From positions 1-4,051 of IMG/VR virus record IMGVR_UViG_3300029590_000195: DNA of 4,051 nucleotides; one strand, written 5' to 3'. The DNA is from a virus. Taxonomy: Duplodnaviria; Heunggongvirae; Uroviricota; Caudoviricetes. A program made the position numbers and the translations under genes. Position 1 is the stretch's first letter. Every line of letters starts with the position of its first letter. This document shows, piece after piece, positions 2,729-2,942 of this stretch. The notes beneath the pieces are model-generated. The model worked only from the letters and a program-made list of their open reading frames with translations, did no database searches and was not told the origin of the DNA.

Positions 2729-2740
2729 TCTCAATCCTTA

Positions 2741-2756
2741 TCTGCGTAGGCGCAGA
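2741..2756 (-). promoter_or_regulatory. Short perfect hairpin/palindrome (TCTGCG-TAGG-CGCAGA) immediately upstream of the integrase SD; candidate operator or leader structure
   Basis: 6-bp perfect inverted repeat with 4-nt loop read directly from the sequence, located 2 nt upstream of the putative integrase SD on the minus strand. Confidence 0.3.
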
Positions 2757-2942
2757 AAACAAGCTCACACATACAAGTCTTTTCTACGGGACAAAATGCA
2801 ATGTGTTGCGGTTTTGTGTTGCTGGACTGAGTTTATCAAGGTTAAATACACTGGATCAACATACAGTAAGTGAATGACAGTAAAGCATACAAACTCGATA
2901 CAACTTACTGATTTTAAAATAATTTAATGGTAATTCATTGAA

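Follow-up and report, generated by a model that had tools for sequence, protein, structure and literature searches.

The DNA analyzed here, a stretch of 4,051 nt from a tailed-phage record of IMG/VR (IMGVR_UViG_3300029590_000195, positions 1 to 4,051; hereafter the window), carries an integrase gene adjoining the upstream region of the conserved ferredoxin gene yfhL. The locus raises three questions: where the integrated element ends, what kind of element it is, and what its insertion does to yfhL. The gene content of the window, read from six-frame ORFs combined with family searches, is summarized in Table 1. The truncated gene at its left edge is annotated as an SNF2-related protein in the L001 locus (19746-21137), and its ORF matches the phrog_62 DNA helicase family (E=2e-124) and, under the Pfam cut-off, Helicase_C (E=2.5e-4). 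The following gene, encoding a helix-turn-helix (HTH) protein, and the integrase gene meet tail to tail with a 4-bp overlap. The integrase and yfhL are divergent, as an earlier sequence-only reading of this DNA had described, and are separated by a 214-bp spacer (2729-2942). That reading had called the spacer an AT-rich gap of 208 bp. The gap is AT-rich (35.5% GC vs 48.4% in the whole window), but the integrase starts at ATG 2728 and not at TTG 2734, as indicated by the RefSeq annotation and by 13 of 13 aligned homologues, which open with M-P/A/S-R/G-T; therefore the spacer measures 214 bp. The AT-richness is not distinctive, the native yfhL-shoB-acpS intergenic DNA having 33-38% GC. No tRNA or tmRNA gene was found in the window by ARAGORN, in agreement with the same reading.

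Table 1. Features of the 4,051-nt window and their coordinates
Feature	Position	Strand	Remarks
Phage SNF2/DEAD-type helicase gene, 3' two-thirds	1..1137	+	Start left of the window; ORF 52-1137
HTH_17/AlpA-like DNA-binding protein, 66 aa, candidate excisionase (recombination directionality factor)	1134..1334	+	
Tyrosine integrase, 465 aa	1331..2728	-	PF00589, phrog_1
Integrase-proximal arm of the phage attachment site	2729..2972		Phage DNA: spacer and surrogate yfhL codons 1-10
TCACACATA, perfect inverted copy of the core right half	2765..2773		Within the block GCTCACACAT
Two direct TGTGTTGC repeats, 13 bp apart	2802..2822	+	Candidate arm-type integrase-binding sites
CTGGATCAACATACAG, LexA-box-like palindrome	2851..2866		CTGT-N8-ACAG with one mismatch
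Phage-borne surrogate yfhL codons 1-10	2943..2972	+	Same in attP contig L030
18-bp att core AATTGTGATATGTGTGAA, crossover region	2973..2990		yfhL codons 11-16 (N-C-D-M-C-E)
Hybrid intact yfhL	2943..3203	+	Phage codons 1-10, core, host codons 17-86
Unaltered host chromosome: remainder of yfhL, shoB, ohsC, acpS 3' end	2991..4051		L001 and L002 annotation
shoB	3477-3397	-	
ohsC sRNA	3800-3876	+	Rfam RF02495, 106.8 bits
acpS 3' end	4051-3898	-	

The end of the element was located by comparison with E. coli K-12 and other genomes in which the site is empty. The yfhL gene of the window differs from that of K-12 at 10 nucleotides, all of them in ORF nt 1-30 (67% identity), and the remaining nt 31-261 (2973-3203) are 100% identical. 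Similarity to the empty-site genomes begins at approximately position 2953, inside the yfhL ORF, and no similarity was found between 2729-2972 and the K-12 yfhH-yfhL spacer. The identical segment starts with the att core, which occupies ORF nt 31-48 and falls within the first CxxCxxC iron-sulfur motif of yfhL.

All four forms of the attachment site were identified. In attB (K-12, L002) the core lies between the left flank ...ATGGCGTTGTTAATCACTAAAAAATGCATC (ending aaaaaatgcatc) and the right flank CCCGAATGCC... (cccgaatgcc...). In attL (L003 and L024; lysogens OkiPb01696 and STEC1590) the native left flank and the core are followed by the phage sequence AT(T/C)A(A/T)ATAAAAA..., and in attR, the form present in the window, the phage left flank ...ATGTCTTTACTAATTACTAAACGCTGTATT (ending aaacgctgtatt) and the core are followed by host CCCGAATGCC.... 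The attP form, with the phage left flank of the window type, the core and the phage right flank of the attL type, is carried by the IMG/VR metagenomic viral contig L030 and also by L053. The free forms were located by an integrase-based scan of IMG/VR; the exact 30-nt attP pattern has 0 matches in this collection, because the free forms have a one-base difference from it immediately to the right of the core. The core is identical in attB, in attL of both lysogens, in attR and in attP, and the flanks are swapped reciprocally as the Campbell model predicts. The junctions share the 18-bp core only: the direct repeat of part of 2735-2942 that had been expected at the distal end is absent.

These comparisons decide against the initial placement of the boundary, according to which the element ends in the 208-bp spacer with the att core within 2735-2942, perhaps overlapping the native yfhL promoter, yfhL is untouched host DNA, and the insertion lies in the acpS-yfhL interval. 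Such a placement is natural given an AT-rich spacer between the integrase and yfhL, and integrase genes are usually close to one att site. Nevertheless, the K-12 DNA upstream of yfhL has no similarity to 2729-2942, resemblance to the empty-site genomes starts within the ORF and becomes perfect from ORF nt 31, and the spacer is present in the free attP contigs and conserved among phages of different host genera. Further, the K-12 gene order is mltF, tadA, pgpC, yfhH>, yfhL>, <shoB, <acpS, so the insertion separates yfhH from yfhL, and acpS, convergent with yfhL and downstream of it in K-12 and in the window alike, has not moved. The comparison of attB, attL, attR and attP refutes this model, and we regard it as wholly improbable. 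The element and the host chromosome meet at 2973-2990, after the first 30 nt of the yfhL ORF. Judged by these alignments, the spacer in its entirety and those 30 nt, like all DNA left of the core, belong to the phage, and the 2729-2972 arm is unchanged in the free attP contig L030.

We conclude that the window very probably contains the junction at the integrase end of a temperate phage that has inserted, by site-specific recombination, into the 5' coding region of yfhL. The att forms, the exact core, the occupancy of the site, the intact hybrid ORF and the conserved arrangement, on which this conclusion is based, are established at the level of sequence comparison. In the proposed mechanism, the phage att site would consist of a diverged copy of the yfhL start (~30 nt), with phage leader and promoter DNA before it and the 18-bp core after it, and the phage tyrosine integrase would exchange strands within the core. 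The native yfhL promoter region, ribosome-binding site and codons 1-10 would thereby be moved to the far prophage end beside yfhH, while the rest of yfhL would be fused in frame to the phage-borne start, so that the ferredoxin gene would remain intact at 86 aa, with two conservative substitutions. The phage would target the part of the gene that specifies the conserved CxxCxxC cluster-binding motif.

The site is accessory in E. coli. An empty site was defined by an uninterrupted 400-bp probe across the K-12 yfhH-yfhL boundary, and an occupied site by coverage of at least 80% of a probe from window positions 2729-3210. The site proved to be empty in 5266 of 5426 complete E. coli genomes (97%) and occupied in exactly the other 160. 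The empty allele thus occurs in close relatives, and the helicase, candidate excisionase and integrase genes are not conserved core genes at this position, which bears out the suggestion that the integrative element is accessory and uses a non-tRNA site. The yfhL-acpS side is present in all 5426 genomes, whereas the whole window is covered at 80% or more in just 156. No second integrase type was detected at the yfhL site in the complete E. coli genomes, since the 160 occupied genomes are the same 160 that carry the arm, all occupants having an arm of the window type.

The unspecified island of the sequence-only reading turns out to be a prophage. The measured elements are prophages of 30-49 kb (30.0 to 48.8 kb from attL to attR), and some carry stx2b. 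In OkiPb01696 the prophage fills the yfhH-yfhL interval, with 41.2 kb between the cores, and contains terminase, portal, sheath/tube-type tail and baseplate genes along with a replication block of DNA polymerase, DUF2800/DUF2815, VapE and SNF2. The STEC1590 prophage (48.8 kb) combines the same int/HTH/SNF2/replication block with lambdoid siphovirus structural genes and stxA2b/stxB2b. Distances between junction matches are 30.0 kb in XH993 and 41.7 kb in ETEC-2264. The element is a temperate-phage integration module common to mosaic phages, and one int/attP cassette serves phages with unrelated virion modules, stx2b carriers included.

The window itself holds attR only, with 2.97 kb of the element, and the copy in it could be something other than a complete inducible prophage, namely the remnant of a decayed prophage, or a satellite-type island of smaller size, with only the integrase end retained. 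The variation in element size is compatible with this possibility, and so are the existence of decayed copies, such as that of E. coli ECMA0423 with a truncated integrase and a frameshifted yfhL, and the distribution of the distal arm, which was found in 127 of the 160 occupied genomes, the other 33 being without the standard distal arm at a coverage of at least 80%. We still consider a remnant unlikely: the integrase, HTH and helicase reading frames are all intact in the window, full prophages match the window at 98-99% identity (STEC1590 over window positions 4-4051 at 98.3%), and all three occupied loci inspected in full contain complete-looking phage genomes.

Integration at this site leaves a reading frame behind. 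The surrogate codons 1-10 share 20 of 30 nt and 8 of 10 amino acids with the native K-12 start (MALLITKKCI), and the hybrid YfhL of 86 aa differs from the K-12 protein by A2S and K8R only, scoring 135.2 bits against the NCBIfam YfhL equivalog NF033683 (cut-off 86). Of 88 completely sequenced related junctions, 85 have an intact yfhL ORF of 82-95 aa, which in 76 cases has exactly 86 aa. The three non-intact cases are one frameshifted gene and two free attP forms with an 18-codon stub, in which the surrogate yfhL start and the core are followed by phage DNA and an early stop. At the distal junction, the native yfhL promoter region, ribosome-binding site and codons 1-10 are displaced beside yfhH, also as an 18-codon stub. 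The arrangement has the properties of gene-restoring integration, the surrogate gene end being phage-borne and the ORF staying intact, with the difference that the 5' end and not the 3' end is supplied. As read from the DNA, yfhL is rebuilt rather than disrupted, with all of its native 5' control elements exchanged.

An altered 5' end could also arise without any part played by the integrase, if a foreign yfhL allele had been the partner in homologous recombination or gene conversion. In support of such events, the surrogate-start sequence, found in 40 IMG/VR loci, has mosaic counterparts: three IMG/VR loci have phage-type codons 1-4 followed by native-type codons 5-10, and therefore some homologous exchange upstream of the core does occur. 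As the origin of the hybrid gene, conversion is nonetheless hardly credible. The surrogate start never occurs apart from the integrase arm, it is found in free attP, where phage DNA and an early stop follow, and at the coverage used it is present in 0 of 5266 empty-site genomes. Moreover, the native 5' end is kept at the other prophage junction, which is not a product of conversion. The reciprocal match of the four att forms also speaks against conversion.

The sequence-only reading had suggested that the insertion may change yfhL expression. The suggestion is reasonable, and insertion could have this effect on stronger grounds than supposed, because the native promoter region, the ribosome-binding site and the first 10 codons are replaced by phage DNA. 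In lysogens, yfhL is presumably transcribed from phage DNA. A promoter scan of 2650-3000 returned three promoter-like sites, compared with 1.3 +/- 1.1 in shuffled sequences, and none of them is convincing. The sole plus-strand match, at 2895-2923, scores 9/12 and does not make a convincing promoter for the surrogate yfhL start. The yfhL leader lacks a clear Shine-Dalgarno sequence and has an invariant GTAA..TGA directly ahead of the start codon. Lysogeny might even rewire this conserved housekeeping ferredoxin through the phage leader, perhaps together with the LexA-like site described below. The phage would then set YfhL levels, and these might follow the SOS state or the transcription of the integrase gene; we mention this as a speculation with low odds. 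If true, phage-set YfhL would be a physiological handle on the host and not a neutral repair of the landing site.

The classic example of gene-restoring insertion into a protein-coding gene is that of phage 21 and e14 in icd. There, as at yfhL, the phage att site holds a diverged gene end, and the ORF length is unchanged after integration. In icd, the 3' end is duplicated and the native promoter kept, whereas in yfhL the 5' end, promoter region and translation start are replaced. Integration at yfhL is in principle of the phage 21/icd type, applied to the 5' end, and the findings leave the understanding of gene-restoring integration systems unchanged. They do document, in clean form, a phage that carries a surrogate 5' gene end together with the promoter side, a situation reported less frequently than duplication of the 3' end. 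With the lambda-type heterobivalent systems the yfhL phage system shares a large attP, a short motif repeated in both arms, a separate small HTH protein and an integrase with a long N-terminal region. It differs from them in the candidate status of its arm sites, in the convergent rather than co-oriented int and candidate xis genes, and in an integrase that has no detectable sequence similarity to solved ones. The P4-like and other island integrases are likewise tyrosine recombinases whose conserved target gene is rebuilt by an element-borne gene end; their target is a tRNA 3' end, whereas attB here comprises codons 11-16 of yfhL, at the 5' end of a protein-coding gene.

The yfhL site and this integrase family are already in the literature (Bobay et al. 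2013; Bujak et al. 2020; the STEC papers cited below). Serratia phage vB_SspS_OS31 was sequenced from the DNA of induced particles, and its attachment site was reported to be a flanking repeat of 23 bp, located in a gene for a 2x[4Fe-4S] ferredoxin (Bujak et al. 2020, PMC7556043; GenBank MT843276); the portions of that paper drawn on here do not state that the gene is rebuilt. The OS31 integrase is 75.9% identical to that of the window, of which the GenBank phage set contains no other homologue. On the opposite strand, the OS31 att sequence reads TGCATCAACTGCGACATGTGCGA and corresponds to yfhL codons 9-16, and in the phage genome it is preceded by ATGGCTTTACTAATTACAAAGCGG, encoding MALLITKR. 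Thus OS31, like the window, has a surrogate yfhL start with a homologous arm, and its integrase and excisionase genes are also convergent and overlap by 4 bp. Unlike the window, OS31 comes from another host genus, its core differs at synonymous positions (AACTGCGACATGTGCGA), and, as a lambdoid siphovirus (Hendrixvirinae), it has unrelated replication and structural genes.

In E. coli, yfhL was listed among the genes 'disrupted' by prophages (Bobay et al. 2013, PMC3603311), a description that differs from the restored ORF observed here. More recently, yfhL was described as a newly identified insertion site of the Stx2b prophages of STEC1586 and STEC1590 (PMC10675304, 2023; PMC12029490, 2025), and induction of the yfhL-borne Stx2b prophages failed (PMC12029490). 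These prophages occupy the same locus and have essentially the same integrase/HTH/helicase module as the window, but both papers name the site without giving a core sequence. The present analysis adds the exact E. coli core, the four att forms and the restoration of the ORF via a phage-borne 5' end. A base-exact att site, in place of the gene name reported earlier, is of value for annotation and for typing of Shiga-toxin phages. Several prophage boundaries in public records of this locus are wrongly placed, some of them including the host genes tadA, pgpC and yfhH and some omitting the integrase; for instance, the published range of the STEC1590 prophage, 1307496-1355384, leaves out the integrase and takes in yfhH. 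Three 'phage' records in the GenBank phage collection match the window at the DNA level, in the helicase part only; they turned out to be mis-bounded prophage predictions from the yfhL locus that lack the integrase.

The arrangement extends well beyond E. coli. A scan for the integrase with one genome per GTDB species yielded 17 loci, including Kluyvera, Citrobacter, Shimwellia, Shigella/Escherichia, Sodalis, Symbiopectobacterium, Pantoea, Erwinia, Serratia and Providencia. A divergent yfhL homologue is situated 213-216 bp upstream of the integrase in 16 of them. The surrogate codons track the phage lineage, and the DNA to the right of the core tracks the host species. Conservation of the CxxCxxC-encoding target would explain why related integrases are found at yfhL in many enterobacterial genera.

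The integrase is a divergent tyrosine recombinase, as suggested by a match to PF00589 (29.8 bits, just above the gathering score of 27.1; restricted to residues 246-359, the first half of the catalytic domain) and a solid match to the phrog_1 integrases (E=3.6e-26), while searches of PDB with the single sequence and with a profile gave no match. We provisionally assign the catalytic residues to R268, K301/K304, R386, H416/H417 and Y429, which do not vary among 13 homologues; in place of the usual HxxR box, the sequence is N-T-M-C-R. This integrase most likely catalyses the exchange at the yfhL core. The 66-aa HTH protein is a candidate for the excisionase. It matches PF12728 at 25.8 bits, under the cut-off of 27; its best match is phrog_4745 'DNA binding protein' (E=4e-27), those to phrog_66 and phrog_1553 (excisionase) being weak, and its positional counterpart in Serratia phage OS31 carries the annotation excisionase.

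The arms of 16 elements from more than 12 enterobacterial genera could be aligned and contain several invariant blocks. Nine of the 10 positions of GCTCACACAT are the same in every one of the 16 arms, and its complement repeats the right half of the core, so we infer that TCACACATA may be an Int-binding site. The motif TGTGTTRY occurs five times in the window against 0.66 expected. The TGTGTTGC repeats are invariant across the 16 arms, and the distal arm has the TGTGTT motif twice in direct and once in inverted orientation; these repeats are plausible candidates for arm-type integrase-binding sites. A LexA-like palindrome (conserved form CTG-N9-ACA) is located 77 nt upstream of the yfhL start. 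All 16 arms have it at a fixed offset from the start codon of int (121-124 nt), and it is perfect in seven of them, with one mismatch in seven and with two in two. The argument for this box is its fixed position across the 16 elements, the single occurrence in the window being not above chance (1.14 expected). No promoter overlapping the box was found in the scan of 2650-3000. A hand-read TTGATC-18-TAAACT on the integrase strand, which overlaps it, scored 8/12, below the threshold, and is not claimed as a promoter. Further conserved blocks are TGATT and the GTAA..TGA leader, the latter directly before an ATG or GTG start. In all, the attP arms extend for ~243 bp on the integrase side, and ~107 bp are conserved on the distal side.

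One int/attP cassette is common to phages with unrelated virion modules, as exemplified by two E. coli lysogens and a Serratia phage (the table below). In E. coli, the cassette is accompanied by a replication block comprising DNA polymerase, DUF2800/2815, VapE, and SNF2 genes. The OkiPb01696 prophage also contains an IS5-family element (ISKpn26), which lies about 350 bp from the distal, yfhH-side junction and adjoins a truncated recombinase (invertase) gene.

Positions of the features discussed and virion modules found with the int/attP cassette
Feature	Locus	Positions	Remarks
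LexA-box-like palindrome CTGT-N8-ACAG	window	2851-2866	equal offset in L006-L023 arms
Inverted copy of core right half	window	2765-2773	TCACACATA
Right half of core	window	2981-2989	TATGTGTGA
Integrase gene	window	1331-2728	
Integrase/candidate excisionase stop codon overlap	window	1331-1334	TTAA
Integrase/excisionase stop codon overlap	phage OS31 (L006)	1657-1660	
23-nt repeat, first copy	window	3549-3571	
23-nt repeat, second copy	window	3797-3819	
Rfam ohsC match	window	3800-3876	
ISKpn26	OkiPb01696 (L003)	14674-15654	
Stx2b prophage, published range	STEC1590, NZ_CP129345.1	1307496-1355384	
Decayed copy	E. coli ECMA0423 (L018), CP178302.1	~2700-2790 and 3001-4097	
int/attP cassette	OkiPb01696 (L001/L003)		contractile-tail type virion module
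int/attP cassette	STEC1590 (L004/L024)		lambdoid siphovirus, stx2b carrier
int/attP cassette	phage OS31 (L006)		Hendrixvirinae Serratia phage

Two elements are conserved in the arm, that is, the integrase-proximal phage DNA. The right half of the att core has a 9-nt perfect inverted copy there, located within the block GCTCACACAT, in which nine of ten positions are the same in each of the 16 elements, even where the host has ATGTGCGA as its own core. The second element, the LexA-like palindrome, occurs in 16 of 16 aligned arms, at a distance of 121-124 nt from the start codon of the integrase gene. Seven arms match CTGT-N8-ACAG perfectly, seven have one mismatch and two have two, with CTG and ACA invariant throughout; for the window by itself, such a match is no more than expected by chance. 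Through the palindrome, transcription of the integrase or of the surrogate (the phage-borne first ten codons of yfhL) could respond to SOS.

The integrase and candidate excisionase genes are convergent, and their stop codons share 4 bp. A convergent pair with the same 4-bp overlap is likewise present in Serratia phage OS31, whereas xis and int are co-oriented in lambda, by comparison with which the order in the window is unusual. Where the HxxR catalytic box is expected, integrase residues 379-386 read G-A-F-N-T-M-C-R, a sequence invariant across 13 integrase homologues. The integrase matched no solved structure by sequence and has no NCBIfam model.

Prophage limits at the yfhL locus are misplaced in public records. 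Three GenBank records of this locus named "Escherichia phage vB_EcoM-...R" (ON470579.1, ON470582.1, and ON470588.1) open with three host genes (tadA, pgpC, and yfhH) and lack the integrase because their sequence ends at the helicase. Similarly, the published range of the STEC1590 Stx2b prophage includes yfhH and leaves out int.

Several loci depart from the common arrangement. In the decayed copy of E. coli ECMA0423, the integrase match ends at residue 366, and yfhL is frameshifted by a 1-nt deletion directly 3' of the core (GAACCGAATG in place of GAACCCGAATG). Upstream of int in IMGVR_UViG_2554235145_000004, about 60 bp of the distal arm follow the core, after which the yfhL frame continues (GCCGGAGTGCCCGAATGAGGCG); this looks like the scar of a deletion or of tandem integration at the site. 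Among the 17 GTDB loci, the association with yfhL is absent only in Raoultella scottii (NZ_JARXNH020000036.1), whose integrase is 90% identical to that of the window and has neither yfhL nor a recognizable arm upstream; this locus may be rearranged or lie at a different site. Finally, mosaic surrogate 5' ends, ATGTCTTTACTAATCAC(T/C)AAAAAATGCATC, were found in three IMG/VR loci among L025-L104, with codons 1-4 of the phage type followed by codons 5-10 of the native E. coli type. Such ends suggest that, upstream of the core, the phage mimic and the host gene have occasionally undergone homologous exchange.

Farther into the host DNA, the shoB/ohsC toxin-antitoxin region contains a 23-nt direct repeat (96% identical), the second copy of which overlaps the beginning of the ohsC match. 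The repeat belongs to the native host sequence and has no connection with the prophage.
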